From: Puniceicoccaceae bacterium
Lineage (GTDB): Bacteria > Verrucomicrobiota > Verrucomicrobiia > Opitutales > Oceanipulchritudinaceae
Direction: 5' to 3'
Assembly (NCBI GenBank): GCA_040830765.1
Contig: JBFOMH010000003.1
Location: 32,001-96,000, forward strand
DNA: 64,000 bases
The position numbers and the translations under genes are program-made. The notes beneath the pieces were generated by a model that searched no databases, was not told the DNA's origin, and was given only the letters and a program-made list of their open reading frames with translations. Below, one piece after another: positions 3,291 to 16,856 of this stretch. Numbering within the stretch: the first letter of the stretch is position 1; each line of letters begins with the position of its first letter.

Positions 3291-5111
3291 ATGAAGCGAA
3301 CGCATCCATACGATCCCATTCAGTGGACCTCTCTGTTCCTCATTATCCTGCTTGTAGCCGTCCTCGGTGGTTGCCGTTCACCCGCTGATGTTGCTCCCCC
3401 GCCAAATCCCGGGCCAGCACCCGATATCCAGAGGGACAAGCGGCTGAGCGGAGATAATCCACAAGCCTCGAGGATTCTGGACTCAGCCGCCGAAGAAGCC
3501 GGGTCGCACCGCATCATCCTCCTTGAGTCGGGCGATGACGCCCTGCTGGCAAGGATCCACCTCATTCGTTCAGCCCGTGAATCCATCGACATCCAGACCT
3601 TCATCTGGGTCTATGACCGAAGCGGGCAATGGGTCTACCGGGAACTGCTGGAAGCCGCCCGTCGTGGTGTCAAGGTAAGGCTGCTCATTGACCAGTTCAT
3701 CAATCCCGAGCTACCGGCGGAGGAATACGCTGCCATCGCCACCGCCCATGAAAACCTGGAAATCCGGCTCTTCAGGCCCCTCACTGTAAATGCCATCAAC
3801 CGGCAATGGGACGTCACCCGACGCACCTTCACCCGCTTTGCGACGATGAACCACCGGATGCATCACAAGGTTTTCCTTGTTGACGGGCAGGCGGCCATTC
3901 TCGGCGGACGCAATTACCAGGACGCTTATTTCGACCGGGACTCCACGCTCAGTTTTCGGGATCGGGATGTCCTCGTAATGGGCCCCGCCTGCGACGACAT
4001 CAGCCGCTTTTTCGAACTCTTCTGGCAGCATGAGATGTCCTTCGAGGCAAGCCGGATGAAGGACCTCAAGAAAGCCCTTGAAACGGATGCGGCCCGTTTG
4101 CCGGATTCCCTCGAAGCCCCGCTGGACCCGATATTCCATGAGGACGACCTGCTGGCCAACCTCTATGATTTGAGAGCTATCCGGCCAACATTCAAGGAAT
4201 GGGTGGTCGGCAAAATCGAGTACATCTCCGACAAGCCGATCAAGGTCACTCAATACAGCAATCCGGGATTCCTCAATCCCTTCGCCAGCCTGAGGAATTT
4301 CATCGCCGAGGCAGACACTGAGGTTCTTATCCAGACTCCTTACTCGGTATTTGAGGACCGGACCTACAAGCGGTGGCGCAAGATTCGCAAGCAACGGCCG
4401 GAAGTCCGGGTCTGCCTCTCGACCAACAGTCTCTCATCCGCCGACCACGTCTATGTCGGCAGCATGGCCCTGAAACAGCGGCGGGCACAGATTGAGAGCC
4501 TCGGCATCGAGCTCTACCTTGCCAAGCCGGTTCCCGGGGACATCCGGGAGATGGTCCCTCGCTACGAAACATTGCTCCATGAGTCTGCCTCATCCCTTGA
4601 TCCGGACTGGGAAGAGGATCCGGAAATCATGCAACTGGACATTGAGGGTCCGCGCTTTTGCATCCATGCCAAGACGATGATCTTCGACCGCAAGATCAGT
4701 TTTATCGGCTCGCACAACTTTGATCCCCGTTCCATGAACCTGAACACGGAATGCGGTGTCGTCATCCGGGATGTCGCCTTTTCGCGGTATCTGGCGGAAT
4801 TTTACGACCGGGCGATCCATCCGGACAACAGTTGGGTCGTGGCCCCGAGGGATTTTGCGCCGATCGTCGGGGAAGTGAACAGTTTTATTGGCCTCGTCTC
4901 CACCAGCTTGCCCCTGTTCGACATCTGGCCGCTGGAGCATGTCTCCTGTTATGAAATGCTTGAAGGGGCGGAACCTCTCTCACCCTACGACGAGTCCTTC
5001 CACGAAAGCTATGAGGATGTTGGCCCCTTCCCCGGACTGGACCTTGGACTCGAACCCGTCAAGGTTCGACTCCTGAGGGCCATTGGGGATCCGGCAGTCC
5101 CCCTGATGTAG
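3291..5111 (+). CDS. Phospholipase D family lipoprotein (ClsC/YmdC-like cardiolipin synthase)
   Basis: Two HxKxxxxD motifs (HHKVFLVD...GGRN and HAKTMIFD...GSHNFDPRS..LNTE) and lipobox LGGC. Confidence 0.88.
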   Translation: MKRTHPYDPIQWTSLFLIILLVAVLGGCRSPADVAPPPNPGPAPDIQRDKRLSGDNPQASRILDSAAEEAGSHRIILLESGDDALLARIHLIRSARESIDIQTFIWVYDRSGQWVYRELLEAARRGVKVRLLIDQFINPELPAEEYAAIATAHENLEIRLFRPLTVNAINRQWDVTRRTFTRFATMNHRMHHKVFLVDGQAAILGGRNYQDAYFDRDSTLSFRDRDVLVMGPACDDISRFFELFWQHEMSFEASRMKDLKKALETDAARLPDSLEAPLDPIFHEDDLLANLYDLRAIRPTFKEWVVGKIEYISDKPIKVTQYSNPGFLNPFASLRNFIAEADTEVLIQTPYSVFEDRTYKRWRKIRKQRPEVRVCLSTNSLSSADHVYVGSMALKQRRAQIESLGIELYLAKPVPGDIREMVPRYETLLHESASSLDPDWEEDPEIMQLDIEGPRFCIHAKTMIFDRKISFIGSHNFDPRSMNLNTECGVVIRDVAFSRYLAEFYDRAIHPDNSWVVAPRDFAPIVGEVNSFIGLVSTSLPLFDIWPLEHVSCYEMLEGAEPLSPYDESFHESYEDVGPFPGLDLGLEPVKVRLLRAIGDPAVPLM

Positions 5112-5135
5112 CCAATTTTGGCTACAGTTGGCAAT

Positions 5136-5795
5136 TCATTCCAACCCGTCCCGGGCAATGTTCTGGAAGTCCGTCTGGTTGACGAAGCCCTTCTGCATGG
5201 CGTAACGGATCAATTCGACCGTTGAGTGCAGTCCCAACTTGCGCATGATGCGCGCCTTGTGGTTCTGCACGCTGACCGGCCGCAGGTTCAGGCTCTCGGC
5301 AATCCGCTCGTTGGAGGCACCGGCCCCGAAGTAACGGAGCAGTTCCTGTTCCCGCTCGGTCAGGATTTTTGAAAACGCCAGGGGGTCCGTCTTCTGGATA
5401 AGCATGTTCTGCTGCACCGTGGCGGCATAATAGCAATTTCCTTCCCCAAGTTGCTGCACCGCTTTCTTCAGTTCCTCAATGGACTCGGTGTTCTTGTCAA
5501 CGAATCCAAACAGGCCGGTCATGAAGACCCGGTAGAGGGTGTACTCGTCGGTGCGTCCCGAGACACCGAGGATCCGCAGCTTGGGATTGACCTTGAGCAT
5601 GCGGTTGGCCAAGTCCAGACCGCTCCCGTCCGGCAGCTCAATATCGAGAATGGCGACATCCGGATTGTATTTTTCAAAGGCCTTCCACCCATCCTTGATA
5701 GTCTGGCAAGTGGCCACCAGTTCGAATTTTTCGGTCAGGCAATTACTGACCAGATCGATGCCCAGCTTTTGATCTTCAATGATGATGGTTTTCAT
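5136..5795 (-). CDS. NarL/LuxR-family response regulator
   Basis: Receiver domain (ED..., LDIELPDGSG, K) plus LuxR HTH (LTEREQELL...IAESLNL..VSVQNHKARIMRKLG). ATGA overlap with the kinase stop. Confidence 0.93.
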   Translation of the reverse strand: MKTIIIEDQKLGIDLVSNCLTEKFELVATCQTIKDGWKAFEKYNPDVAILDIELPDGSGLDLANRMLKVNPKLRILGVSGRTDEYTLYRVFMTGLFGFVDKNTESIEELKKAVQQLGEGNCYYAATVQQNMLIQKTDPLAFSKILTEREQELLRYFGAGASNERIAESLNLRPVSVQNHKARIMRKLGLHSTVELIRYAMQKGFVNQTDFQNIARDGLE

Positions 5796-8700
5796 GACCG
5801 TCTCCATTTCCGCAGTTCCAGTAGCCCTACGTGTATCTCGTCCATGTCACCGTTCTGGGCGGACACTTGTAAGTCACGACATACCTGCTGCATGGCGCGA
5901 TTATTCCGGATCATGGCGAGGGTAGTCAAGCGATGGGCGCATCGACGGAGATTTTCCCACTCGTAGCGGTCTCCGTAAAGGAGGCATTCGTCGATATGTT
6001 TGTAAATTTCCTCCATCACCTCATCGGCGGCTACCATATCGGTGGTGCTGGCGAGCTCCGGCTTGTAATTCTGGATATTGGCCAGACAGTAGGCCAGGCG
6101 GGCAGCTGTCAGTGGCTTGCTGATATAGCCATTCATGCCCGCTTCCTCGCTTTCGCGCTTTTTCTCCCCATCGGTATAGGCCGTTACGGCGACCAGGATA
6201 ACCTCGTCATCAGGATCCTTCTTGCGGTGGCGGCGGGCGATTTCCGGGCCGGTCAACCCGGGAAGGTCCCAATCCAGCAGGGCAAGGTAGTAGTCGTTCT
6301 TCTCCAGCTGTTCGAGGGCATCCCGGCCGTTCTCAGCCTCGTCGCAGGAACAACCAATGGTCTCAAAGAACTCCACCACCGAACGGCGGTTGTAGACCAG
6401 GTCATCCACGACGAGAATCTTTTTACCCTTCAACTGGGCCAGGACCGCCTCCTTGTCGAGCTCGGTGGCTCCCTCGACACGATCGAAGCGCCCCTTGAGG
6501 ACAAAGCGGCAACCGGAAGGTTGATTGTCTTCCAGCCGCAAGTGTCCCCCCATGGCATGGGCGATTTCCTGACAAATGGACAATCCCAGTCCCGTCCCGT
6601 GCTTCCCGCTTTCCACACCGCTTTCACCCCGGTAGAAGCGCTCAAAAATGAATTCGCGTTCGGACTCGTCAATGCCGATGCCCCAGTCGGCAACATACAG
6701 TTCAAGGTCGACTTCATGGTCGGTGATGTTGATGCAGGTGGCTCCAATCTCCACCCGGTCCGACTCCGCGTACTGGAGGGCATTAACCAGCAGGTTGCTC
6801 AAAATCTTGATCATCCAGTTCCGGTCTGTCCGGATGACGACATCAGCCAGTTCCGGGGAAATGACCGTGTTCAGGTTCACCATCTCATGCTGAAGGCTGA
6901 ACTGGTTCTGTTTCACCGAGCTCTCGATCAGGTCGTGGATGGAAACAGGTATGAAGGCCGTCGGGATGTTTTTCTGATCAATGGCCGAAAAGTCGAGGAT
7001 CTCACCCAGCATCCGGTCAACAATGACTCCGAATTCGGTCAGGTCCTTCAAGCGGGGATCATCTCCGGATTCCGGTGGATTCCTGGTCAGGGTCTCGGTA
7101 ATCATGAGAACCCCGTTCAAGGGATTGCGGATGTCATGCGACAAGCCGGCGAGGAAGTTAGTCCGAGCTGCGGTGGCGGCCTCCAATTCCCGTGTCTGTT
7201 TCTTGACCTCGCTTTGCAACCAGAGGTTGGTCCGCTTCAATTGCGCCGAACGCAGGGCGAACAAGCCCCAGAAAAAGAAGAGGGCCGCCACGACCATGAC
7301 TCCCTGGTAGATGGGATTCAAGTACCAGGGCGGGGCGATCCCGAATTGCACCAGCTTGGAGGAGGAAACATTTCCATTCGGGTGCATGGCCCGCAACTCC
7401 ACCGTGAAGTTGCCATGCCCGGCAAACTGCAGGGACGGATCCTGCAAATTGACGTTTCGCCACCGCTGCTCGTTGATGCGGTACTGGACGATGCTGGGAA
7501 TGTCCGGCTCGGAGAAATTCACCTGCAGGTCAATGAAGTGCATGCCGCTGGGAATGGTCCGGTCCTCGATGCGCTTGTCTTCCAGCAGCAGGGCAAACTC
7601 GACCCGGGGTGCCGCCGCTCGGGACAATTCCGGAACCGCATACCAACCGACACCATGCGCCCCGACGATGCCCAGCCGCTCACCCCCACCCATCAGGCCA
7701 ATTGCTTCCCCGGCCTGCTCCAGGAACGGAACGGTCATCATGATGTTGCCGGCGTCGGAATACATGCCGACGGCAAGGTTTCGCGTGGCTGGATCTTCAA
7801 AAAGGACATAGGTATCCTCGCCCGAGTTACTGAGTGACCTGACGGTCCATCCTGGTGCCAGGGGGAAGCGTTCCAGCGATTCACCCCTCCATCGATAGAC
7901 AACCGTCGGGGAGGCCAGCCAGACCGCATTCTCACCCGCCGCATGGGCAATGATGACGTCCTCCATCTTGTAGGGGAGCTCCACTGAGCGCCATCCGGAC
8001 CCTTCCCGGATTAACTGCAGAATCTGCTTGCCCCCGATGAGGGCGTAAAAGCCGGAATCCAATTCTCCAATCAGCTCAATCTGGCGCTCATCCTTGTGAA
8101 TCAGTTCGAGTTCGAATGTGTCGGAAACTGAGTAGATTCCCTCCACCCCAAGGGCAAAGCCCGTTGATTGGCCCCACTTGAAGCTGGATATCGGTTGGGT
8201 GAGCTCTCTTACCGACCAATCTTCTCCATTAAATTCTTCGTAAATATTAACTGCTCCCATCACTGGGAGGCCGTCCTTGTCAACATCCACCCAGCTCGCC
8301 GTCCGCAGGAGTTCACCTTTCTCATAACCATCATTATCCAACCGGATCCAACCCTCATCCAGAAAGAGAAAGCCTGCCTCTTCCCCAGCCAGAAAATGCC
8401 GGACACTGTCCCCTTCCCAAAGCTCCCCGGAAGGGAAAAACTTGGACTCCCTGCTGAAGTCAACCACCCCCACGCCCTTGTCACCAAGCATGGCGATCCG
8501 GGTTTTATCAAGGGCCCGGATCTTGAAAACATCGCCCAGATCCAGCTTTTCATCGCTGCTAACGCTTTCACTGATGCGTTCCAGTGACCGGTTCCATACC
8601 GCCACCCCGAGCGGGTACTCAGTAATGGCGATATAATCGCCAAGACCCGCTGAATTATTGATGCCCTTCTTGAAAAAGTCCCCGTAGTTGGAATTGATAA

Positions 8701-9406
8701 GAACCGGTTCATCGTTCTTCTTTCCCGACCAGTAATATACCCCGAAATTGGTCCCGAAGGTGTACTTCTCCCCGGTCCTTTCGAGCCAGGCGACCAGTTC
8801 TCCGTCCGTCATTTCAATGGGAAGGATAAGTTCCCGGCCTTCGGCCGTTATGCGCCAGATACCAGAACCTGACCCGACATACAAAAACGGATTTTCCGCA
8901 TCGGCATGGTAGACTACCGGCCGGGGATTAAAGGTCTCTTTCCAGTGCTGTCCGACTTGGAACGTATCTGGCTCGATCCATCCAAATCCCTCTGAAGCAA
9001 TATACCACAAACGGTCCAGGTACCACTCCAACGACCATACAAAACCGACTTCAAGGGTTGAGAATCCGACAAGTTTTCCCGATCTGTCGAAGCCGCCAAC
9101 ACCGGCGGAATCAGCAAACCAGAGTGTGTTTCCATTCGGTGAAACGGCGAGTGCGGTAACGCGCCCGGAGGGCCGTATTGTCTCCCACTGGTCACCGCTG
9201 AGCCGATACAATCCCTCCCCTGCGAGCCATATATCATCCGCGAACAGGCTGACATCATGATAGCTTGCCGGCGGCACCGATTCGAGCTTTTCGGCGAAGC
9301 GGTAGGCGGGACCCGTTAATGGATCCGCAATCAGGACGTTGATAAAATTTAATCCAACGAGGAATAGGAACTGTGGAAATATGGATGAAGACATTTTTTT
9401 AAACAT
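5792..9406 (-). CDS. Hybrid sensor histidine kinase: large periplasmic beta-propeller-like/Y_Y_Y-like sensor, TM, HisKA, HATPase, receiver, Hpt-like tail
   Basis: H-box SHDIRNPLNG, N-box NLLVNA, G1 DWGIG, G2 GTGLGL, receiver VDD/DWDLP/KP and C-terminal CAHRL. The real start is probably 9406 or 9394 (signal-like MSSSIFPQFLFLVGLNFINVLIA), not 9562. Confidence 0.9.
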   Translation of the reverse strand: MFKKMSSSIFPQFLFLVGLNFINVLIADPLTGPAYRFAEKLESVPPASYHDVSLFADDIWLAGEGLYRLSGDQWETIRPSGRVTALAVSPNGNTLWFADSAGVGGFDRSGKLVGFSTLEVGFVWSLEWYLDRLWYIASEGFGWIEPDTFQVGQHWKETFNPRPVVYHADAENPFLYVGSGSGIWRITAEGRELILPIEMTDGELVAWLERTGEKYTFGTNFGVYYWSGKKNDEPVLINSNYGDFFKKGINNSAGLGDYIAITEYPLGVAVWNRSLERISESVSSDEKLDLGDVFKIRALDKTRIAMLGDKGVGVVDFSRESKFFPSGELWEGDSVRHFLAGEEAGFLFLDEGWIRLDNDGYEKGELLRTASWVDVDKDGLPVMGAVNIYEEFNGEDWSVRELTQPISSFKWGQSTGFALGVEGIYSVSDTFELELIHKDERQIELIGELDSGFYALIGGKQILQLIREGSGWRSVELPYKMEDVIIAHAAGENAVWLASPTVVYRWRGESLERFPLAPGWTVRSLSNSGEDTYVLFEDPATRNLAVGMYSDAGNIMMTVPFLEQAGEAIGLMGGGERLGIVGAHGVGWYAVPELSRAAAPRVEFALLLEDKRIEDRTIPSGMHFIDLQVNFSEPDIPSIVQYRINEQRWRNVNLQDPSLQFAGHGNFTVELRAMHPNGNVSSSKLVQFGIAPPWYLNPIYQGVMVVAALFFFWGLFALRSAQLKRTNLWLQSEVKKQTRELEAATAARTNFLAGLSHDIRNPLNGVLMITETLTRNPPESGDDPRLKDLTEFGVIVDRMLGEILDFSAIDQKNIPTAFIPVSIHDLIESSVKQNQFSLQHEMVNLNTVISPELADVVIRTDRNWMIKILSNLLVNALQYAESDRVEIGATCINITDHEVDLELYVADWGIGIDESEREFIFERFYRGESGVESGKHGTGLGLSICQEIAHAMGGHLRLEDNQPSGCRFVLKGRFDRVEGATELDKEAVLAQLKGKKILVVDDLVYNRRSVVEFFETIGCSCDEAENGRDALEQLEKNDYYLALLDWDLPGLTGPEIARRHRKKDPDDEVILVAVTAYTDGEKKRESEEAGMNGYISKPLTAARLAYCLANIQNYKPELASTTDMVAADEVMEEIYKHIDECLLYGDRYEWENLRRCAHRLTTLAMIRNNRAMQQVCRDLQVSAQNGDMDEIHVGLLELRKWRRS

Positions 9407-9425
9407 ACTGTAAAAATGGAGCCCT

Positions 9426-9593
9426 ATGAAAAACATCAAACGCATCCTAATACTCGTTGTGGCTATCTGTTTAGCCTCAGTCGGGCTAAATGCACAAGCT
9501 GAAACCGTCAGTAAGAAGGTAATCAAGGATTTGGACTCCAAGAGTTCCGGTTCCATTCTCATGAGTATCTACTGTATCGTCGGCATCAAGTAG
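9426..9593 (+). CDS. 55-aa secreted peptide; candidate RiPP/signal-peptide precursor
   Basis: Manual translation: MKNIKRILILVVAICLASVGLNAQA|ETVSKKVIKDLDSKSSGSILMSIYCIVGIK. It has a basic n-region, an h-region and an AQA cleavage site, with GGAG upstream, and lies 57 bp before the YcaO-like gene. Confidence 0.75.
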   Translation: MKNIKRILILVVAICLASVGLNAQAETVSKKVIKDLDSKSSGSILMSIYCIVGIK

Positions 9594-9650
9594 CCCTTAG
9601 GAGTAACGCAACACTGAATACTAACCGTAACGTATAACAAAGGCCTAGAA

Positions 9651-10631
9651 ATGACCACCCTGTCACAGTCAGCAACGCTGCCCGTTCCCTATGATTTGAG
9701 CGCAGCACCCGAATGGTTCCTCAAGAAAGCACGCTTCGCCAAGCGGTTTTTCCTGAATCTTGCCCCCATCCGCTATGCGCTGGCTGCTGAAGAAGGGGGT
9801 CCTATCAGCCAGGTGGAATACGGCCAGGCGGAATACATGGGCCAGCTCTGGCAGCTGTGCCGGGCGACCTTGCAGGAGGATTTCCAGCACCCGATGGGGA
9901 AAAAGCTGGAGTTGTTCTCCTCCGCAGACGGCTCGGGCATGGGGCTGACACGGCTTGAGGCCCGCGCCAAGGCTATCTCCGAAGCCCTCGAACGCTGGGC
10001 CTACACGGAGACCAGTTCCGGACCGGACGCTGTTCTCTATGGATATCCGTATTCCATGAGTACCAAGGGCATGGCCGCCTTTCCCAGTGTTTTCCCGGGA
10101 ATGGCACGCCGCACCGCCATTTCAGAGGCTTTTGAATACTACTCGGTGGACGCGTGGTGGGGAGGCACTCTCAACCACTGGATAATCAATCGGGACGATT
10201 CAACTATCGTCTTCATCAACCAGCCTGAGTTCAAGGGACATATCGCCTTGGCTATCCGGCACCTCGACCTGAACGACTATGTCGCCGCTTACGGGATAGG
10301 ATCGGGTGCTACGGCTGAAGAAGCCGAACTCAAGGCACAACTGGAAGCCTGCCGCTCACAGACCATTCTCGAACGGCGTGATGCGACACCCCACCGTGTC
10401 CGTAACAAGCCCGTCCTGGAAATGGAACAACGCCTGCTCGAGTTCTCTTCGCGCGAAGGCTTTGCCATGGTCAAGGATCGTCTTGCCAGTCGCCCGTGGT
10501 TGCCGGAAATCAAGCCCAACGTCATCTTCGACGGACCGGTCAAGGGACCATGGAATAAGTACGCCCATGTCTGGCGCTACGCACTGGAGCCCTTCCCGAT
10601 TAAGTATCGCCAACGTCAGTTTGTTGCCTGA
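9651..10631 (+). CDS. YcaO-like protein (stand-alone, short)
   Basis: Three YcaO-type ATP/Mg motifs: GSGMG...AKAISEALERWA, TKGMAA...AISEAFE and YGIGSG...AELKAQLE. Confidence 0.75.
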   Translation: MTTLSQSATLPVPYDLSAAPEWFLKKARFAKRFFLNLAPIRYALAAEEGGPISQVEYGQAEYMGQLWQLCRATLQEDFQHPMGKKLELFSSADGSGMGLTRLEARAKAISEALERWAYTETSSGPDAVLYGYPYSMSTKGMAAFPSVFPGMARRTAISEAFEYYSVDAWWGGTLNHWIINRDDSTIVFINQPEFKGHIALAIRHLDLNDYVAAYGIGSGATAEEAELKAQLEACRSQTILERRDATPHRVRNKPVLEMEQRLLEFSSREGFAMVKDRLASRPWLPEIKPNVIFDGPVKGPWNKYAHVWRYALEPFPIKYRQRQFVA

Positions 10632-10698
10632 CCAGGCACCGCTGCTGCCAATCTGCTGTCAATCTCCACAAACCGTCTTCATCCTAACCACAGGCACA

Positions 10699-11193
10699 AT
10701 GAGCACGCATGAAAGCACTTTCAACTTCCCGTTCATCTCCAACCTGATTTCTGACAAGGCTGGTGAGCGAACGAGCCAATTCCGTAAACAGGCTGTCTCC
10801 ATGAAAGAAAAAGCCCTCTGCCTTGACGACGACCCCCTTTCGCTTCGTCTGGTTGAGCACCTGTTGAAGGAGCGCTACCAGGTTGTTTCCTGTCCCACCA
10901 TTGATGCCGCAGTCAAGGCGGTACGGCGGCACAAGTTCTGCCTCTTCCTGTGCGACTATCATCTCGGGGAGCATTTCACTGGCGCTCGCGCCAACGAAAT
11001 CCTCACCCGGAAATACCGTTTCAATCCAATCCACCGGGTTCTGATCACTTCCTACCCGTCGCCGGAAATTGAAAAGGAGACCCTGGCCAGCGGATTTGAA
11101 AGAGTATTCGCAAAACCGCTACGTCGAGAGTTCCAATCCTATTGCCTGAGCCTTTACCGTCCTCCCCTCAAGAGTGGCATGGCCGTAGGCTGA
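10699..11193 (+). CDS. Single-domain response regulator (CheY-like receiver)
   Basis: LCLDDD, LFLCDYHLG, LITS and FAKP motifs. Start is 10699 or 10801. Confidence 0.82.
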   Translation: MSTHESTFNFPFISNLISDKAGERTSQFRKQAVSMKEKALCLDDDPLSLRLVEHLLKERYQVVSCPTIDAAVKAVRRHKFCLFLCDYHLGEHFTGARANEILTRKYRFNPIHRVLITSYPSPEIEKETLASGFERVFAKPLRREFQSYCLSLYRPPLKSGMAVG

Positions 11194-11409
11194 ATCCAGC
11201 AAGCGAAGCCCCCGTCATGATTGCCATTACCACCATAGGCCTTCTGGCCAATGGAACCCACCCCGTCCCCCGGGATGGCCACCCGAGACCTCGTACGGTC
11301 CGGAGGGGTTGCCGACCCCTGCCCAAGCCCGCCACTGTCCGCGTCAGGAAGGATCGGGGAGAACGCTAAAATTATTGCCAGCGGGATAAGGAAACGGCTT
11401 CCTTGAAGC

Positions 11410-13599
11410 ATGACTCTCGCTGCCAGACTGACGGCCTTGTTGATTATCGTCGCCGTCACGCCCGACCTCCCGGGCAAACCCAAGCCGGTTCCGGCTACCG
11501 GGCATGGAGTGCCACCGCCTCCGGTTGAGCTGAGCGGATCAAACGACACCCTGCTGCAGGCCAACCTGGCACCTGAGAACCAATATTCGATCGGCAGTCC
11601 CTCCGATGAAGAGCAGGCCATTGTCGAGATGATTAACCGGGCCCGTGCGGATGCCGACGCGGAAGCGCTACGTCTCGCCAATACCACCGACCAGGATGTC
11701 CTGGATGCGATCTGCTTTTTTGGTGTCAACCTGCCGGAGATGATCAACCAGTTCGCTGCCCTCCCCCAGTCCCTTCCCCCGCTTTCCATCCATCCTGAAT
11801 TAACGGATATGGCCCGCCTTCATTCCCAGGACATGTTTGACAATGTTTTCCAGGGCCACACCAGTTCCGGCACTCCCCCCGCTCCCTACTCCGCCGGGGA
11901 CACACTCTCAGACCGTGCTGCCGAGTTCACCTATGCCTACACGACGCTCGGAGAGAATGTTTATGCCTTCGCCAGATCTGATGCCTATGGTCATGCCAGT
12001 TTTGAAATCGACTGGGGATTCGATGCCTTTGGGATGCAAAGCCCACCGGAACACCGGGAAACGATTCATGATGCCCGATTTAAGGAAATTGGAATTGGCA
12101 TTATCAAGGGAACTAATTCGACCGAGTCCCTGACCGTTGGTCCCTTGCTGATGACCCAGGTATTCGGCGAGCCCCAGTCGTCAGGTCCCTTTATTACGGG
12201 CGTCGCCTATTACGACCTCAATGGAAATGGATTTTATGACGCCGGAGAGGGACTTGGCGGATTGACCGTTTCCACCGAGGAAACGACGGCCTGGGCACTG
12301 ACCGCAAACAGCGGGGGTTACTCCATTCCGGTCCCGTCGGATGGCGCCTACACGGTTACATTTTCCGGGTTAGGCATCACGCCCCAGACTACGGTCGTCA
12401 ACGTGGCGTCCGGGGAAAACATCAAGCAGGACTTTGCCATTGGATATGTCCCACCCGTCCTCTCCGGCTCATCCACGCCCTTTACCGGGATCGACAACGA
12501 ATATGCCATATCTCCAACGCCAGGAGCTACTGGCTACTGGTTCAAGGTATATACTGAAAATGTCACTACATGGCTGGAGGGGGCCGAGAACGGTAACACG
12601 GATGTCACGATCCTCAACAGCCCTGAATACGTCGTCATCCAGGGAGAGGTGGTCCGCAACGGGGCCAATGCCTTTCACCTTGCCCATCCGGGAGGCGGAA
12701 GCGACCAGGTCATCACGCTTCAGCATACCATATTTCCAACCGCCAGCAGTGAACTTCGTTTTGGCAGCAAGCTGCAGTATGCAACCTCCTCGCAAACGGC
12801 CAATGTGGACGTATCCACCAACGAAGGAATATCATGGACCAATATTTACCGCCAGACAGGATCCAACTCCAGCGGGGAAGCCGGTTTTGTCTACCGTTTT
12901 GTCCCTCTGGGAAGTTATGCCGGCCAACCGCTGCGGATTCGCTTCCGCTACTCCGTTGAAGGATGCAACCCCTCCATCTACGATGGTATCACCACAAACA
13001 TTGGCTGGATTATCGACGACATTACGGTGGCCAACGCGACCCGCTTGCTCCCGGAAAGCGAATTCATCCTGGGGTCCCCAATAGCGACTTTCAATCCCGC
13101 CACCGCCGGGGAATTCTACCTCACTGCCCGTCCGGTCAACAATTTCAAGGGCTTCCCCTATGGTCCGCTCCTCAAGGTAACATCCGGACCTGCCGGGCCG
13201 CAGGACTTGTGGCGGCTGGATAACTTCCTCCAGGCCGACCTCAATGACTCAGCCAAGGAATCGACAATATGGGGCGACCTCGCTGATCCCGACAAGGATG
13301 GATTGGGCAACTTACTTGAGTACGCCCTGGCGGGTAATCCCAACCTCGCCGATGCCCACATGATTATGCCGCAGTTCGGCCGGTCGGGAGGTGTCCTGAC
13401 GCTCAGTTACACGATGCAACGCTCTGAATTGAGCTACCGCGTCCTGACGAATACGGATCTCCAGGACCAGCCATGGACATCAACCGGGGTCAGCCAGACG
13501 CCGGATCCCGACACCGCGAGCGAAGGCACCCCCATAGAGGCTTCCGTGACCCTCGGCGTTGGTCGCCGTTTCCTGCAGCTTGAGGTGGTTGAGCCCTGA
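11410..13599 (+). CDS. Secreted CAP/SCP-domain protein with prealbumin-like and beta-sandwich domains and a verrucomicrobial C-terminal domain
   Basis: INRAR, ARLHSQDM..FQGH, GENV, HRETI..FKEIGIG (CAP); FITGVAYYDLNGNGFYDAGEGL; C-terminal DPDKDGLGNLLEYAL. Confidence 0.82.
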   Translation: MTLAARLTALLIIVAVTPDLPGKPKPVPATGHGVPPPPVELSGSNDTLLQANLAPENQYSIGSPSDEEQAIVEMINRARADADAEALRLANTTDQDVLDAICFFGVNLPEMINQFAALPQSLPPLSIHPELTDMARLHSQDMFDNVFQGHTSSGTPPAPYSAGDTLSDRAAEFTYAYTTLGENVYAFARSDAYGHASFEIDWGFDAFGMQSPPEHRETIHDARFKEIGIGIIKGTNSTESLTVGPLLMTQVFGEPQSSGPFITGVAYYDLNGNGFYDAGEGLGGLTVSTEETTAWALTANSGGYSIPVPSDGAYTVTFSGLGITPQTTVVNVASGENIKQDFAIGYVPPVLSGSSTPFTGIDNEYAISPTPGATGYWFKVYTENVTTWLEGAENGNTDVTILNSPEYVVIQGEVVRNGANAFHLAHPGGGSDQVITLQHTIFPTASSELRFGSKLQYATSSQTANVDVSTNEGISWTNIYRQTGSNSSGEAGFVYRFVPLGSYAGQPLRIRFRYSVEGCNPSIYDGITTNIGWIIDDITVANATRLLPESEFILGSPIATFNPATAGEFYLTARPVNNFKGFPYGPLLKVTSGPAGPQDLWRLDNFLQADLNDSAKESTIWGDLADPDKDGLGNLLEYALAGNPNLADAHMIMPQFGRSGGVLTLSYTMQRSELSYRVLTNTDLQDQPWTSTGVSQTPDPDTASEGTPIEASVTLGVGRRFLQLEVVEP

Positions 13600-13606
13600 G
13601 GTTTCC

Positions 13607-14767
13607 CTAATTGGGGCTGGCTACAAAACGGATGAGCAGGGCATCATGCTCAAGGGGCAGGAGGATTTGCTCCAGGACGATGGCCCGGCCATCGGAAATC
13701 CGGGTATCCAGGTTGAGAACAGAACCGGCCATTTGCCACGTTTCGCCATCGTGGCTGTAGTGGATATTTAATTCAACTTCCGCACCGAGGTTCCTCCAAT
13801 ATACCAGGGAATATCCATCTTCAGGATCGATCGCCTGGGAGATAGAGGGCCGGCTGCCGGCATCGCTGGGGTCGGATGCGAACAGGTATTCCATCAATTG
13901 CGACCAGCCATCCCTGTCTGTGTCAGCGTTTTCCACTGGCTCCAAGGCATATCCCCCGCTCCAGTCAGCAAAGGAGACAACGGGAACGGTGGCCGGGTTC
14001 ATCACACCAACCGCATCCAAGTCAAATCCGGACGTAATGATCGTTGGATACGGATCATAAATCGCGTAGCCCTCGCAATCCATCCGGGTGCCATCCCCCG
14101 GTATGTCAACCAGGCGGACATACCGGATCGCCTCCATGTTTAAATACGGAAAATTCTCCTCCACCGATTCAGCATAGGCTTCACTGAACCGGTCATAGCC
14201 CTGCAGCAGGGCAGCATGGACCGCGGCGAGCTCGGCCAGGTCAAACGGGGTTCCAAATCCCCCCGCGTGCTTCCCGGCAAATCCCTCGATGTATTCCGGT
14301 TGTAATACCCCGAATGCACCGACGGGCTCCGCAGTCAGGGAGTAATTGGGAAACCGGACAAAATGCAGGCCATCTGAGGAAACCTCCACATAGGCCAATT
14401 CGAGAAATGTCCCGCTGAAGCTGTTTTCAAACACGGCAAAGTCGTAGCCCCCACCATCCCGGATTGAGGGCGTGAATTCCAGGACTGCCGAGCCGCCACG
14501 ACCCAATACGACGACGTCATTCCCGTTCAGAAAAGCCGGACCGAGACCTGCTTCCGGCGTTTTCCACTCCTCAGCCACTTCCTCGCCGTACGTAACCTCG
14601 ATCCCTGTGGCCCAACCCTTGATGACCGGGTCTTGATTCCAGATAGCGACTGTTCCCGGTTCCCCGGCGGCCGGACTGAAGGGAAACACCGGAGCTTCAT
14701 ATCCCAGTGCCAGCGTTGGCGGAAATCCGGTAATGGCCAGCAGCCCAAACTGAAGAAGGTGCCTCAT
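13607..14767 (-). CDS. Secreted/cell-surface protein associated with a TonB-dependent receptor
   Basis: Signal peptide; [30 protein letters not shown] and GFDLDAV motifs; starts 6 bp after the TBDR stop. Confidence 0.75.
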
Positions 14768-14773
14768 ATTGCC

Positions 14774-16801
14774 TTATATGGAGTAATTAAGCCGGATGAA
14801 GGCCTGACGTCCCGGGCCCGGGTAAAAGCCTCCGCTATAGGCGGAAACCGCGTGGTTTCGATCAAACAGGTTGTGAATACCCCCCGACACAACAAATTGG
14901 GGGTGGGGATTCCAGCGGAACATCAGATCCACGATCCCATAGGCGGGAATCCTGCGGAAGGCGTTCGCGAAGTCATTCCCCTGAACCTGTGATGATAAGT
15001 AGCGACCGTGAAGTTGTATTCGCAGGGAATCAACCGGCTTGAACCAGCCGGTGAGCCCACCCTCGTACCGGGGAACAAGTGGCAGCCGCTTTCCTACAGA
15101 CTCGTCCTCGAATTCAGTCCGCACCACGGTGGCATGCATGGAAATGCCGTAGCGGTCTTTTCGATACGCTGCATTCAGCTCCAAACCGCTCCGGACTGTG
15201 TCACCAATATTGATGTTCAGGCGCTCTGACTCGGAAAAGCTGATCTCATCATCCATGCGCAAGTGGAAGACGGTCGCCGAAAGGTGCCAGTTGTCCTCAA
15301 AGCGCTTCAACCCGGCCTCGAAATTATGGCCCGTTTCCGGCTCCAAATTCACGTTGAGGGGATCCCTCAGGGGAAATCCCTGGTAAGAAGCCGTTTCATC
15401 AAGCGCCGGATACCGGTAGACACGGTCCCAGCCGGCCCACAGATTGAGCCCTTGGGACAACTTCTTTACCAGTGAAACCTCAGCCGACCAGCCGGACTTT
15501 GTAATTGTGCCGTCATATGAGGCCTCCTCATCGATATCCGGATTCTCCTGGTATTCGGGATTCGGGAATGTGCCTCGGTTCGTCTCGATAAACGGGTTCA
15601 GCTGATTCTCCTCGTAGCGGACATAGTCATTCGCTGAACGCGCTGTCTCCAGTCGCAACCCTCCCGACAATTCCAGGGTGGAGCTCAACTCCCTTGAAGA
15701 AAACAGGTATCCCCCCACGGTCAGGCGCCCGATATCCGCAAAGGAGCGTAGAATGTCCCCCGCTTCATTCGTATAGTCCCGATGCCGCACCTCATCTCCG
15801 GCAATGTCCAGACCCGTCATCAAGAACCCTTTACCGTCGCCCAGACGGACCCGCGGGGATAGCGTCAACTGGCGTTGGCGGTTGTCCCCAAATCTCCCTT
15901 CCAGGTTGGACTGGCGCTGGCGCTGCAAAACTCCACCGTTCATTTGCCAGCTGCCCCAATCTTCCTGGCCTTCCCCCATCAGGGTCGCCTGCCAGTTCTC
16001 TGCCTCAACCCGCTCCTTGCCTCCGTTGTTGGACTGGCGCGGATTTTCCCGGAACTGCCCATAGGTCAACGGCCCGGGAAATTGGATCGCTGAGTCTCCA
16101 GCCGTAAACCGTCCCCTCCACCTGGGACCACTGGTTCCACCCACATTCCAGGATAGGTGGCCGGTTCGGCTCTCAATATCCGAGTTTTCCCGGTAGCCTT
16201 TGGATTCCATCCAGTCGAGCCCACCCCGCAGGCCCACGGTCCCCAGCGCCTGCTGCAGGGATGCCGATGCCCGGCGTGTGGCATCACTTCCAAATTCTCC
16301 CTCAAGGTTTCCTGCCAATTCGCCCCCAGGTTCCCGGGTGCGCAACTTCACCACTCCGGATACGGCATGGTTCCCATACAAGACCGTCTGCCCCCCACGC
16401 AGGACTTCCACCGTCTCCAACTCCCCCAGCGAAAGGCCCAGCCAGTTAATTCCCCCCATGTCCGGCGGATTGTACACCTGCCCGTCCACCAGTACCAATA
16501 CCCGCAAGCCGCTGTTGTCCCCAAAACCCCTCAGGGCCAGCTGCCCCTCCGCTCCTGTCCCGGTGAATTGGCGAAACCGTACCCCAGCCGCCTGCTCCAA
16601 TACCTGCGGCACGCTCCACGCCCCGCTCGTCTCCAAATCCACCCGCTCCAGACGCACCACGCTCGCCGGTATCTCCATCCCCAGCCCGTCAAAATGCCAC
16701 GCTTCCACCACGTACGGACCCAGCTCCACCACCGGCTCCGCTTCCACCCTCAGAACCGCCAGTAGCAACAGGATTATCCACCTCTGTCCATTTCCCTTCA
16801 C
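14774..16801 (-). CDS. TonB-dependent receptor
   Basis: Plug motifs LRGFG..VLVLVDG and EVLRGG..LYG..A..GVV; LEPETG; NLFD; C-terminal IRLNYSI. GTG start at 16801 with GGAGG RBS. Confidence 0.9.
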   Translation of the reverse strand: MKGNGQRWIILLLLAVLRVEAEPVVELGPYVVEAWHFDGLGMEIPASVVRLERVDLETSGAWSVPQVLEQAAGVRFRQFTGTGAEGQLALRGFGDNSGLRVLVLVDGQVYNPPDMGGINWLGLSLGELETVEVLRGGQTVLYGNHAVSGVVKLRTREPGGELAGNLEGEFGSDATRRASASLQQALGTVGLRGGLDWMESKGYRENSDIESRTGHLSWNVGGTSGPRWRGRFTAGDSAIQFPGPLTYGQFRENPRQSNNGGKERVEAENWQATLMGEGQEDWGSWQMNGGVLQRQRQSNLEGRFGDNRQRQLTLSPRVRLGDGKGFLMTGLDIAGDEVRHRDYTNEAGDILRSFADIGRLTVGGYLFSSRELSSTLELSGGLRLETARSANDYVRYEENQLNPFIETNRGTFPNPEYQENPDIDEEASYDGTITKSGWSAEVSLVKKLSQGLNLWAGWDRVYRYPALDETASYQGFPLRDPLNVNLEPETGHNFEAGLKRFEDNWHLSATVFHLRMDDEISFSESERLNINIGDTVRSGLELNAAYRKDRYGISMHATVVRTEFEDESVGKRLPLVPRYEGGLTGWFKPVDSLRIQLHGRYLSSQVQGNDFANAFRRIPAYGIVDLMFRWNPHPQFVVSGGIHNLFDRNHAVSAYSGGFYPGPGRQAFIRLNYSI

Positions 16802-16856
16802 GTGACCTCCATACCCCTCATAATGGCACGGGAATGTCAATAAGGAAGGGAGTGTG

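Follow-up and report, generated by a model that had tools for sequence, protein, structure and literature searches.

The 64,000-nucleotide stretch of Puniceicoccaceae DNA analyzed here (the window) carries a 55-codon open reading frame (ORF) that is almost certainly a genuine gene. Its product, a precursor with a signal peptide and a conserved cysteine, belongs with a stripped-down YcaO protein and a dedicated sensor kinase to an undescribed module found across the Opitutales, which probably makes a modified peptide and perhaps senses it. The reading we favor, with somewhat better than even confidence, is a Sec-exported, YcaO-modified RiPP tied to its own two-component system, possibly as an autoinducer. 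A full-text literature search, with subscription-only papers outside its cover, returned no description of this family. The one paper to mention YcaO together with an Opitutales name, PMC7794033, only includes Opitutus terrae among its training genomes.

A small gene opposite an over-extended kinase frame

The ORF runs from ATG to TAG at 9426..9593 on the forward strand, exactly as quoted in the preliminary description, and is antisense to the 5' end of a mechanically called ORF on the reverse strand (5792..9562). That a gene is hidden at this position was borne out by comparison with related genomes. The small frame is kept directly upstream of a YcaO-like gene in 10 of 10 orthologous loci, at 41–98% identity, and in 12 orthologous sequences the first 50 codons are free of indels and a cysteine always occupies position 50. 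The preliminary description had proposed frame conservation and dN/dS upstream of homologous YcaO genes as a check; all values for the window against an orthologue lie below 1 (0.04, 0.09, 0.09, 0.10, 0.12, 0.19, 0.22 and 0.38), three further pairs being saturated. Searching metagenomic peptide clusters with the 55-residue sequence yielded 51 matches at E <= 0.001. An alignment of 52 sequences shows residues L10, L16, G20, A25, D35 and C50 to be invariant and E26, K30, G42 and Y49 to be almost so. The exact window peptide is absent from a public collection of 15 billion proteins while its orthologues are present there as 'hypothetical protein', so the gene was missed in this genome.

The opposing explanation is that the ORF is not a gene, that the kinase begins at 9562, and that conservation of the small frame mirrors the kinase N-terminus. 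Third codon positions are indeed common to the two frames, which is why codon periodicity cannot choose between them, and the antisense frame is open across the peptide in 9 of 12 orthologues. However, it is interrupted by stops in two of the twelve (L004 and L009), and another stop is conserved opposite codons 48–49 in 11 of them. The antisense frame also has the higher pooled pN/pS (0.594, against 0.405 for the peptide frame) and the more radical replacements, with a mean BLOSUM62 score of −0.74 as compared to +0.24. Furthermore, the kinase has a proper signal-anchor N-terminus when started at 9406, peptide orthologues were called by other annotators, and mini-ORFs with a signal and a cysteine are found at paralogous loci where the sequence is unrelated. 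We give this explanation hardly any credence. The 5792..9562 ORF is over-extended, as had been suspected, and the kinase likely starts at 9406, where an ATG (MFKKMSSSIF...) stands 20 nt ahead of the one that opens the peptide gene; 7 of 12 orthologues retain it, and a further 4 have a start close by. Genuine micro-genes can thus go unseen opposite over-extended antisense ORFs.

The two divergent start codons are separated by a 19-nt spacer (9407..9425) with a TA-rich, −10-like box at 9411–9417, and TA is kept at this position in 12 of 12 orthologues. The same 12 spacers share no conserved Shine-Dalgarno sequence. The spacer may be a promoter, and the peptide mRNA may be near-leaderless, with a start at about 9422–9424; the kinase mRNA would overlap the peptide gene in antisense unless it is leaderless as well. 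A sigma-70 promoter scan of 9000–11600 found no sites, terminator-like sites were no more numerous than expected (4 versus 3.0), Rfam gave only sub-threshold chance matches, and just two short palindromes occur in 9150–9700. RNA-library contigs identical to the window cover the ORF, and one of them (9035–10515) bridges it; as DNA may be present in the libraries, these contigs weakly support expression. The RNA runs were picked using this very stretch and their depths cannot rank genes, and contig-free stretches (e.g. 5886–8401 in X4 and 4500–9017 in X7) prove nothing.

Layout of the predicted precursor

The arrangement of signal, spacer and Cys-containing tail that had been proposed for the peptide is readable in the sequence; the precursors encoded before paralogous YcaO genes show it too, although their sequences differ greatly. 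Residues 1–25 (9426..9500) form a predicted Sec-type signal peptide with K2, K5 and R6 followed by a hydrophobic core; judged by eye, a 15-residue hydrophobic stretch leads to A-Q-A and then E26. Small residues at −3/−1 (AQA or AHA) followed by E or D are kept in 12 of 12 orthologues. Residues 26–49 (9501..9572) comprise a charged spacer (ETVSKKVIKDLDSK) and a hydrophobic stretch before the cysteine, the charged part covering residues 26–39 and the hydrophobic part residues 40–55. This region may contain the sequence recognized by YcaO. Cys50 (codon 9573..9575), the proposed site of YcaO chemistry, is the single cysteine of the post-signal part, the other one (Cys15) lying within the signal. 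It is followed by a variable tail, IVGIK in the window (residues 51–55, 9576..9590), that in orthologues is 2–9 residues long and commonly reads x-x-G-P-G-x-N-R.

This pattern of conservation separates the residues earlier listed as candidate nucleophiles. Cys50 stands as the one invariant residue of the tail (12/12 orthologues and 52/52 aligned sequences), whereas the serines fall away: Ser40, Ser41 and Ser43 vary among orthologues, and position 47 may be S, T or N. The idea that the C-I-V-G-I spacing recalls the ring of an AIP, which takes a Cys and four more residues up to the processed C-terminus, was not supported at the level of the encoded C-terminus: its distance from the cysteine varies in the orthologues and in the family as a whole (0–27 residues, mode 4–5).

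Two other classes of exported product were considered for the peptide and rejected. It has no lipobox and the signal-region Cys15 is not conserved, which disfavors a lipoprotein; for a PEP-CTERM or other C-terminal sorting tail the hydrophobic stretch is too short and the motif is absent. The peptide had no match in Pfam, its sole NCBIfam match was to CTX-M (E 0.062, a chance similarity of signal peptides), and all ESM Atlas matches were below 0.9 (HEAT-repeat clusters) and gave no lead.

The precursor is paired with a minimal YcaO protein

The gene after the peptide (9651..10631, forward strand) encodes a minimal stand-alone YcaO-domain protein of 326 aa. Its identification as a YcaO was confirmed at the level of structure: an AF2 model (pLDDT 88.1) has the YcaO-domain fold, the top Foldseek matches are all YcaO proteins, and McbD and LynD tie as the best fold matches. 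Comparison of 37 diverse members showed no variation at S110, E111, E114, R115, E159, E162, E232, R235, E259 or R309, and the motif S110-E111-x-x-E114-R115 matches the start of the Pfam profile. By hhalign, E159/E162, candidate acidic ATP/Mg2+-binding residues, align with E199/E202 of E. coli YcaO (E 0.0071, but at a probability of 5%); an E202A variant of the latter appears in a figure legend of PMC13063428. Scores against sequence models lie below the cut-offs, at 23.8 versus 25.7 bits for PF02624, where the match spans profile positions 1–25 only, and at 12.4 versus 75.65 bits for TIGR00702. A whole-genome search with PF02624 gave no match; precomputed PF02624 matches exist for many members of this YcaO family. 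Searches of PDB sequences (phmmer and profile) returned nothing significant, and neither the peptides nor the YcaOs of the paralogues are represented by a model in NCBIfam. Family members are 295–326 aa long, consist of a bare YcaO domain, and fall into 719 clusters at 50% identity.

Mini-ORFs with a signal peptide and a cysteine were surveyed among ORFs of 40–110 aa, with a near-C-terminal Cys as a filter criterion and only loci with enough upstream DNA counted. Such an ORF lies just upstream of YcaO on the same strand in 62 of 71 Opitutales loci, as compared to 4/71 on the opposite strand and 1/56 in a stretch 2.6–3.3 kb upstream. None of the 62 catalogued precursors lacks a Cys close to the C-terminus, as the filter demands; 29 have one cysteine and 23 have two. 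Precursors of the paralogues carry another post-signal motif, [LFIMV]-D-[PVAG]-x and mostly LDPLT, which was present in 46 of the 62. The residue before the cysteine varies across the family; Pro is the most frequent (43 of 117 cases), and Ser and Tyr come next. In L013, L023, L026, L017, L076, L088 and L102 the core is repeated in tandem, with 2–3 cores of 11–21 residues that end in basic residues, like multi-core RiPP precursors. Core types follow YcaO clades on a tree, a descriptive observation.

This pairing bears on an alternative in which the small protein stays unmodified and serves the kinase as an accessory, periplasmic or anchored in the membrane, much as MgrB serves PhoQ, and YcaO acts on another substrate, be it a protein, the kinase or a regulator. 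Small size, an N-terminal hydrophobic segment, a periplasmic cysteine and tight pairing with a kinase do resemble MgrB. YcaO proteins that modify proteins also exist, E. coli YcaO acting on uL16 according to the excerpts of PMC13063428. Nonetheless, the peptide gene is always directly before YcaO on the same strand, the core type tracks the YcaO clade, and tandem repeated cores would make no sense in an anchored subunit. The A-x-A motif is strictly kept, and cleavage is therefore favored over anchoring. We consider an accessory role improbable.

Candidate chemistry of the modified peptide

We are fairly confident that the peptide is the substrate of the adjacent YcaO. An invariant cysteine is the classic azoline nucleophile, and the most likely product would be a thiazoline formed from Tyr49-Cys50, to which we assign about an even chance among the possible chemistries. 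Other YcaO reactions, namely ATP-dependent removal of the tail, backbone thioamidation, or macrocyclization through the Cys thiol, are on the unlikely side but have real arguments behind them. The tail after the cysteine varies and seems expendable. YcaOs that form azolines as a rule require an E1-like or RRE partner, with a dehydrogenase in addition if azoles are to result; no E1-like or Ocin-ThiF (RRE) partner was found among the genes flanking YcaO in 12 wider loci, nor was an FMN-dependent dehydrogenase among the conserved neighbors there. The conserved cysteine and the fold matches to McbD and LynD, though tied, speak against these other reactions. So does the lack of TfuA in this genome, although thioamidation independent of TfuA exists. 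For tail removal the precedent is MusD (PDB 7u58), described in the excerpts of PMC10885120 as the YcaO-like, ATP-dependent peptidase of muscoride A. The variable C-terminal tail found here could similarly be a removable recognition sequence. However, MusD is a 651-residue chain in 7u58 with extra domains, and the cyanobactin pathway in which it works has enzymes that depend on a leader.

Microcin B17 (McbBCD) and the cyanobactin systems of LynD, PatD and TruD resemble the present one in having a small precursor gene directly upstream and a conserved Cys, and cyanobactins also have multi-core precursors. In contrast to those systems, the YcaO is bare, a predicted Sec-type signal replaces the leader, there are usually only one or two cysteines, and the pair is always accompanied by a hybrid kinase and LuxR regulator. 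Linear azol(in)e peptides (TOMMs) characteristically have cores rich in heterocyclized Cys, Ser and Thr. No protease, ABC exporter or other conserved export or maturation gene was seen in the 12 loci. If the assignment is correct, no RRE partner is required for a YcaO domain on its own to locate its substrate.

The closest parallels to the predicted precursor itself are the MNIO-modified bufferins and oxazolins. As outlined in the excerpts of PMC12452194 and PMC11626156, these have an N-terminal Sec-type signal in place of a leader, a precursor gene that precedes the enzyme gene, cysteine as the modified residue, and cytoplasmic modification before export. They depend on an MNIO enzyme with a DUF2063 partner rather than on YcaO alone; no MNIO (DUF692) or DUF2063 gene was among the neighbors scanned here. 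Bufferins, moreover, contain several cysteines and bind copper, and those excerpts mention no conserved kinase. Precursors using the Sec pathway are viewed in the excerpted text of PMC12452194 as highly unusual among RiPPs, with export shown so far only for MNIO-made bufferins. A YcaO family with Sec-signal precursors would be a second, independent case.

In weighing the favored reading as a whole, we counted against it that its chemistry is inferred, that the E1-like or RRE partner is absent, that YcaO scores below the Pfam cut-off and is only weakly linked by sequence to YcaOs of solved structure, and that only one cysteine is conserved, preceded by a residue that varies.

The kinase and its regulators

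Divergent from the peptide gene, the reverse strand encodes a hybrid sensor histidine kinase of 1204 aa (5792..9406, from the ATG at 9406), identified by its Pfam domains, hydrophobic segments and conserved start. It consists of a signal anchor, an extracytoplasmic domain of ~670 aa (residues ~31–697), a transmembrane segment (residues 699–721) and a HisKA-HATPase-REC-(HPt) portion. Next to it lies a LuxR/GerE-type response regulator of 223 aa (5136..5807, reverse strand; Pfam Response_reg and GerE). Beyond YcaO, a single-domain response-regulator receiver of 164 aa (10699..11193, forward strand; Pfam Response_reg) was assigned a start that matches its 164–165-aa orthologues, the mechanical ORF from 10306 being over-extended. 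The receiver gene is present in 6 of 6 orthologous loci compared and absent from the paralogue loci.

The kinase is a nearly constant companion of the peptide–YcaO pair. A divergent hybrid kinase of 1219–1362 aa is found in 12 of 12 wider loci, 10 of which have the LuxR regulator beside it. In a set of 51 loci, a divergent hybrid histidine kinase was detected in 49 and a LuxR-type match (>150 residues) in 42, a score of which adjacency to the kinase was not part. The pairing with the kinase and LuxR regulator spans 279 species-level loci. Two such modules occur together in eight genomes of the genus, and in the genome studied here they have separate sensors; a further kinase, the third with this kind of build, occurs without YcaO.

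The sensor domain has a weak profile match (E 0.027) to the sensor domains of Bacteroides hybrid two-component proteins 3ott and 3va6, and Reg_prop or Y_Y_Y matches were obtained for 4 of 8 paralogue kinases, weakly suggesting a propeller-type fold. The 3ott/3va6 proteins likewise have a large periplasmic domain followed by a transmembrane segment, HisKA, HATPase and REC; they differ in their fused AraC output, in place of which this kinase has an HPt region and a LuxR regulator encoded separately, and their sequence similarity is marginal. Glycan binding is what sensors built in this way are known for, and glycans are the known ligands of the 3ott/3va6-type Bacteroides sensors. The domain is also the fastest-evolving part. 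When the window is compared with L044, sensor identity is 82% (dN 0.107), as against 98% for the peptide, 98% for YcaO and 97% for the cytoplasmic kinase part; in L046 and L047 the peptide is 87–91% identical to that of the window and the sensor only 41–42%.

These observations lend themselves to a different role for the same biosynthesis, in which the kinase senses, for example, a glycan or stress and the two-component system has the peptide as its output, which could be an antimicrobial, a bufferin-like metal binder or an envelope factor. Regulator pairs are common in RiPP clusters. The known Sec-signal RiPPs are, in the excerpts of PMC12452194, Cys-derived metal binders, and the much faster divergence of the sensor than of the peptide, like its weak relation to glycan-type sensors, would fit as well. 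On the other hand, only the peptide and YcaO are conserved neighbors of this kinase family, and the 12 loci have no recurrent genes for glycan use, immunity, transport or metal homeostasis. One conserved cysteine makes a poor metal site, short tandem cores with basic ends look more like small diffusible peptides, and two orthogonal modules per genome fit signaling channels better. An output role is accordingly rather unlikely in our estimate.

Proposed pathway and comparison with signaling systems

For the favored reading of a Sec-exported, YcaO-modified peptide tied to its own kinase, we propose the following route. The 55-residue precursor would be made in the cytoplasm, with the Sec-type signal peptide replacing a classical leader, and the adjacent cytoplasmic, ATP-dependent minimal YcaO would activate the backbone amide beside Cys50. 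The modified precursor would then be exported by Sec and cut after A-Q-A25; export by this pathway is likely. The presence of 2–3 tandem cores in relatives makes it likely that the product would be trimmed further, to a short peptide containing the Cys. The product would be functionally tied to the divergent hybrid kinase and LuxR-type regulator. Of the possible links the most likely is that it would be the periplasmic ligand of the large propeller-type sensor and so close an autoinduction loop, an assignment whose chances we rate a little short of even; otherwise it would be a regulated output. Against a simple ligand–receptor pair, the divergence of the sensor outpaces that of the peptide. 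The glycan binding of comparable sensors and the third kinase that lacks a YcaO were also counted against the favored reading.

Among signaling systems, the staphylococcal agr system consists of the AgrD precursor, AgrB, which modifies it at a Cys, the membrane kinase AgrC and the regulator AgrA, encoded in divergent units with orthogonal variants. The present module parallels agr in its four-part make-up, divergent transcription and several orthogonal variants. However, its modifier is a cytoplasmic ATP-dependent YcaO, its precursor carries a predicted Sec signal, the distance from Cys to C-terminus is not fixed, the ~670-aa sensor is periplasmic rather than polytopic, and the host is a Gram-negative member of the Verrucomicrobiota. 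AgrB is missing, as the preliminary description had stated, with 0 matches to PF04647 in the 96.9%-complete genome. The likeness to Phr, PapR and AimP precursors drawn there survives as an analogy only: no TPR-type RRNPP receptor was found among the neighbors scanned (YcaO, hybrid kinase, LuxR regulator and REC protein), and what accompanies the peptide conservedly is a kinase of the membrane. Peptides of the RRNPP class act as unmodified C-terminal oligopeptides that Opp re-imports. The signaling analogy is reasonable because the hybrid kinase and LuxR regulator belong to the conserved module.

More tentatively, the module could constitute a quorum-sensing-like circuit of the Opitutales, with a Sec-exported, single-Cys peptide marked by YcaO, periplasmic sensing by the kinase, a peptide operon driven by the LuxR regulator, and two orthogonal channels per genome. 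Such a circuit would be of a kind not described for Gram-negative bacteria. To our knowledge, no peptide pheromones are known from the Verrucomicrobiota, and since a hybrid kinase and LuxR regulator are obligate partners here, the module points to signaling by modified peptides in this phylum. The family is small and has clear bounds, and its carriers include the cultured isolates Horticoccus sp. 23ND18S-11 and Oleiharenicola lentus, which makes the question directly testable.

A small gene hidden beneath the kinase reading frame

The reading frame at 9426..9593 (+) runs from ATG to TAG over 55 codons. On the other strand it overlaps the initial 137 bases of a mechanically called ORF at 5792..9562 (-), whose product, a hybrid histidine kinase, carries HisKA, HATPase_c and Response_reg domains. 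The residues quoted for it in the preliminary description, which took it to encode a hidden precursor peptide, are present exactly as claimed. As read from the sequence, the N-terminal part of the peptide has basic residues (K2, K5 and R6), 15 hydrophobic residues, and A-Q-A followed by E26. Residues 26–39 form a charged stretch, and the C-terminal part is hydrophobic, with Cys50 as the sole cysteine beyond the signal peptide. To assemble orthologues, the taxonomic family (37 genomes including the window's own) was searched with the 326-aa YcaO protein encoded immediately downstream at 9651..10631 (+). The protein was present in 29 of these genomes, and 10 loci were orthologous to the YcaO of the window (49–98% identity); all 10 have the small frame immediately 5′ of the YcaO gene (41–98% identity). 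Codons 1–50 are free of indels in 12 sequences, with Cys at residue 50 throughout and 2–9 residues beyond it. Pairwise dN/dS between the window peptide and its orthologues was 0.04–0.38 (8 pairs with computable dS, another 3 being saturated), a range whose naive reading is weakened because the kinase and peptide frames have common third codon positions; for the same reason, codon periodicity cannot choose between the frames. A profile of the 12 orthologues matched 51 peptide clusters in a collection of 5.8 billion clusters. Over 52 sequences, L10, L16, G20, A25, D35 and C50 are invariant, the last of these having been proposed earlier as a candidate modified residue, and Q24, E26, K30, G42 and Y49 are nearly so. 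The exact window peptide has no copy in the protein collection searched, which does hold orthologues and paralogues labelled "hypothetical protein", so the gene was overlooked in this genome and not everywhere. We conclude that 9426..9593 is a real gene, as had been claimed.

The antisense frame behaves differently. It is interrupted by internal stops in two orthologous loci (L004 and L009) and has a stop opposite peptide codons 48–49 in 11 of the 12 sequences. Pooled pN/pS was 0.594 for this frame versus 0.405 for the peptide frame, and its replacements were more radical (mean BLOSUM62 of −0.74 versus +0.24). An ATG 20 nt 5′ of the peptide start, suitable as the kinase start, is kept in 7/12 orthologues; four more have alternative starts at −17, −23, −32 and −29, and one (L051) has none upstream. 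In the window, this ATG at 9406 opens the sequence MFKKMSSSIFPQFLFLVGLNF..., a normal signal anchor. The ORF at 5792..9562 is therefore over-extended, as suspected in the preliminary description. Read from 9406 on the minus strand, the hybrid kinase has 1204 residues, comprising a hydrophobic segment (8–30), an extracytoplasmic region of ∼670 residues, a transmembrane segment (699–721), and a cytoplasmic kinase, receiver and HPt-like end. The kinase and peptide start codons are divergent with 19 nt between them (9406 and 9426). No Shine-Dalgarno sequence is conserved before the peptide in the 12 orthologues, and a near-leaderless peptide mRNA is suggested, along with a kinase mRNA that, if not likewise leaderless, must run antisense across the peptide gene. 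The interval also contains a TA-rich, −10-like box at 9411–9417, 9 nt 5′ of the peptide ATG, whose TA is kept in 12/12 orthologues, and 'CCT' precedes the ATG in 11/12.

The downstream enzyme is a predicted minimal YcaO

The 326-aa protein scores just below the Pfam cut-off for PF02624 (23.8 versus 25.7 bits, covering profile positions 1–25 only) and reaches 16.6 bits with TIGR03604; PDB sequence searches returned no significant match. An AF2 model built from a 37-sequence alignment had a pLDDT of 88.1 and a pTM of 0.88, and the top Foldseek matches to it were exclusively YcaO chains, with the first unrelated chain scoring 6.5. By its modeled fold, the protein is a minimal YcaO. Its invariant residues include S110, E111, E114, R115, E159, E162, E232, R235, E259 and R309, of which E159/E162 align to E199/E202 of Escherichia coli YcaO in a profile-sequence alignment of low probability (E 0.0071). 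A figure legend in PMC13063428 names an E202A variant of the E. coli protein, and that source also mentions biochemically validated ATP-binding residues. Because the window protein is without a signal peptide, it is expected to act in the cytoplasm. Neither TfuA, AgrB nor a canonical PF02624-scoring YcaO was found in the window genome.

Searches of a word-indexed collection gave 495 family matches, all unnamed or "hypothetical", and the named source organisms were exclusively Opitutales or Verrucomicrobia. The family comprises 719 clusters at 50% identity (E ≤ 0.001; 316 at ≤ 1e-30), nearly all of 280–340 aa, and 279 loci in species-representative genomes. It occurs in 31 of 401 genomes sampled from the phylum, all within the order of the window. 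Two loci with an Opitutales-type module (L052 and L112) are from MAGs labelled 'uncultured Agromyces sp.' and 'uncultured Bdellovibrionales bacterium', designations that look like binning or naming errors since L052 is near-identical to L047 from an Opitutales MAG. ESM Atlas matches to the protein of 9651–10628 include a cluster of 339-aa YcaO proteins that is commonest in Pseudomonadota (feature score 0.93), which hints at similar short YcaOs outside Verrucomicrobiota.

Most family enzymes are preceded by signal-bearing cysteine peptides

All 71 loci that had 450 nt or more upstream, free of N, were screened with one filter for ORFs of 40–110 aa that lie on the YcaO strand, end before YcaO, begin with basic residues, and have a hydrophobic run lacking charged residues with a Cys further downstream. 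Such an ORF was found in 62/71 loci; the other strand of this stretch gave 4/71, and a stretch 2.6–3.3 kb upstream gave 1/56. These 62 precursors have widely divergent sequences but are organized alike: a signal whose −3/−1 positions are small residues, a clade-specific post-signal motif (LDPLT-like in 46/62), and either one (29/62) or two (23/62) Cys near the C-terminus. Spacing is CxxxC in 23 of the 33 precursors with at least two Cys, and the residue preceding Cys is most commonly Pro (43/117 cases). Core type tracks YcaO clade on the tree, a descriptive result only, since relatives have common labels. Seven precursors (L013, L023, L026, L017, L076, L088 and L102) contain 2–3 tandem copies of an 11–21-residue core; examples are three tandem 11-residue units around L-P-C and two units around CxxxC. 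One multi-core locus, L088, is from a cultured Horticoccus isolate.

The peptide and YcaO belong to a conserved four-gene module

A hybrid kinase of 1219–1362 aa is divergent from the peptide-YcaO pair in all 12 of the wider loci compared (4 orthologous and 8 paralogous), and a LuxR/GerE regulator, at 5136..5807 (-) in the window, adjoins it in 10 by Pfam and in an 11th (L053) by tblastn. Of the 51 loci that extend 4.3 kb or more upstream, 49 carry the divergent kinase and 42 a match of >150 residues to the LuxR-type regulator. No recurrent transporter, protease, dehydrogenase or E1-like gene was detected in the 12 wider loci. The pair thus belongs to a conserved four-gene module. A 164-aa single-domain receiver after YcaO (10699..11193) is confined to the module clade to which the window belongs; the mechanical 295-aa ORF at 10306–11193, which overlaps the YcaO 3′ end, is over-extended, its true start being 10699. 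Genes flanking the module (3291–5111, 11410–13599 and 13607–17035) lie outside it; they encode a member of the PLD family, a CAP/YkwD-domain protein of 729 aa that also has carboxypeptidase-regulatory-like repeats, a protein of 386 aa assigned to no family, and a TonB-dependent receptor.

Window-type and paralogous modules occur together in 8 genomes of the genus. In the window's genome, the second module lies on another contig (L032, 7635–12690) and has a mini-YcaO of 301 aa, a divergent hybrid kinase of 1288 aa, a LuxR regulator and a 61-aa precursor (8589..8774, minus strand) with a signal peptide and the ending ...TLPCGSNKRK. The sensors of the two modules barely align, and each is unique within the genome. 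A third contig (L124, 6037–10841) encodes another hybrid kinase with a similar layout, 1289 aa long and 20% identical to the paralogue sensor (E 3.8e-8), with no YcaO or mini-ORF; a 312-aa REC-LuxR fusion follows it and a divergent 1105-aa protein precedes it.

Proposed pathway and the role of the sensor

The cytoplasmic YcaO would activate a backbone amide of the precursor ahead of export. Our first choice of product is a thiazoline from Tyr49-Cys50, because an invariant Cys is the classic nucleophile; we put this chemistry at slightly less than an even chance. Tail removal of the MusD type, which has precedent (PMC10885120), and thioamidation remain live alternatives, since fold scores fail to separate the chemistries, and azoline formation by a partner-less enzyme would be unusual. 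Whichever the modification, Sec would export the linear product and signal peptidase would cut after A25. Further trimming to a short peptide, suggested by the tandem cores of relatives, may follow, and the product, linked to the kinase/LuxR pair, would act in the periplasm or extracellularly. Judged from sequence, a YcaO-modified, Sec-exported precursor tied to this pair is the somewhat more probable explanation of the locus.

Whether the product is also the signal for the kinase was considered through the extracytoplasmic sensor (kinase residues 31–699; window 7310–9316), the fastest-evolving part of the module. Relative to the closest relative (L044), the sensor is 82% identical (dN 0.107, dN/dS 0.11), whereas the peptide (98%), YcaO (98%) and cytoplasmic kinase part (97%) have a dN of 0.008–0.016; the sensor dN is ∼seven times that of the cytoplasmic part (0.016) and far above that of the peptide. 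In L046 and L047, the peptide is 87–91% identical to that of the window and the sensor only 41–42%. A ligand and a receptor that form a tight pair should co-vary; either a small pocket alone matters or the peptide is an output and the kinase senses something else. The output reading also draws on a marginal resemblance of the sensor to the sensor domains of Bacteroides hybrid two-component systems (E 0.027), whose known ligands are glycans; some paralogue kinases have Reg_prop or Y_Y_Y matches. An autoinducing loop is favored because the peptide and enzyme are the sole conserved neighbors of this kinase family, the genes stand head to head with a 19-nt gap, a single genome contains orthogonal modules, and the products resemble short diffusible peptides. 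Even so, an autoinducer role falls a little short of an even call.

Relation to known systems

The closest enzymology is that of YcaO-dependent RiPPs, which have in common the fold and an upstream Cys precursor, but the search of the Opitutales module turned up no partner protein, no dehydrogenase and no leader peptide. The closest precursor logic is that of bufferins/oxazolins, where a Sec-signal precursor is likewise used with a different enzyme superfamily; a review calls such precursors highly unusual, with bufferins as the sole experimentally shown case (PMC12452194). The agr system is closest in circuit logic (precursor, modifier, kinase and regulator), but with AgrB absent and a Cys50 tail that varies among orthologues (2–9 residues), the AIP-like ring put forward earlier is not supported. 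The likeness to Phr/PapR/AimP is one of analogy alone, as no RRNPP-type receptor lies among the scanned neighbors; the module kinase carries its own large sensor and is paired with a LuxR regulator. The Ser residues did not hold up as YcaO nucleophiles either, leaving the preliminary interpretation partly supported. Full-text literature searches found no published description of this YcaO/peptide family, and Pfam and NCBIfam have no model for the peptides and no specific model for the family YcaOs. We rate the module as a probable YcaO RiPP system in which the precursor carries a Sec signal, the enzyme is bare and the two-component partner is obligate.

Possible traces of expression

Part of the window stretch occurs in 20 sequencing runs, 3 of them recorded as metatranscriptomic. 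Contigs from 4 runs match the window without mismatch: one (9035–10515) bridges the entire peptide ORF, and others cover 9442–10102, 9475–11398 and 9498–11264. They are weak evidence that the genes for the peptide, YcaO and receiver are transcribed, as contigs show neither strand nor ends, may derive from DNA in the libraries, and come here from runs selected with this very sequence. In one RNA run (X3), word depth was ∼1636 in the 9520–9770 bin versus 114 for the flanking contig, with loose ends at 9498 (adapter-like) and 9745; this peak (9498–9770) may reflect an abundant short RNA or may have arisen in assembly. A weak hairpin with a T-run lies at 9732–9755, inside the YcaO 5′ end.
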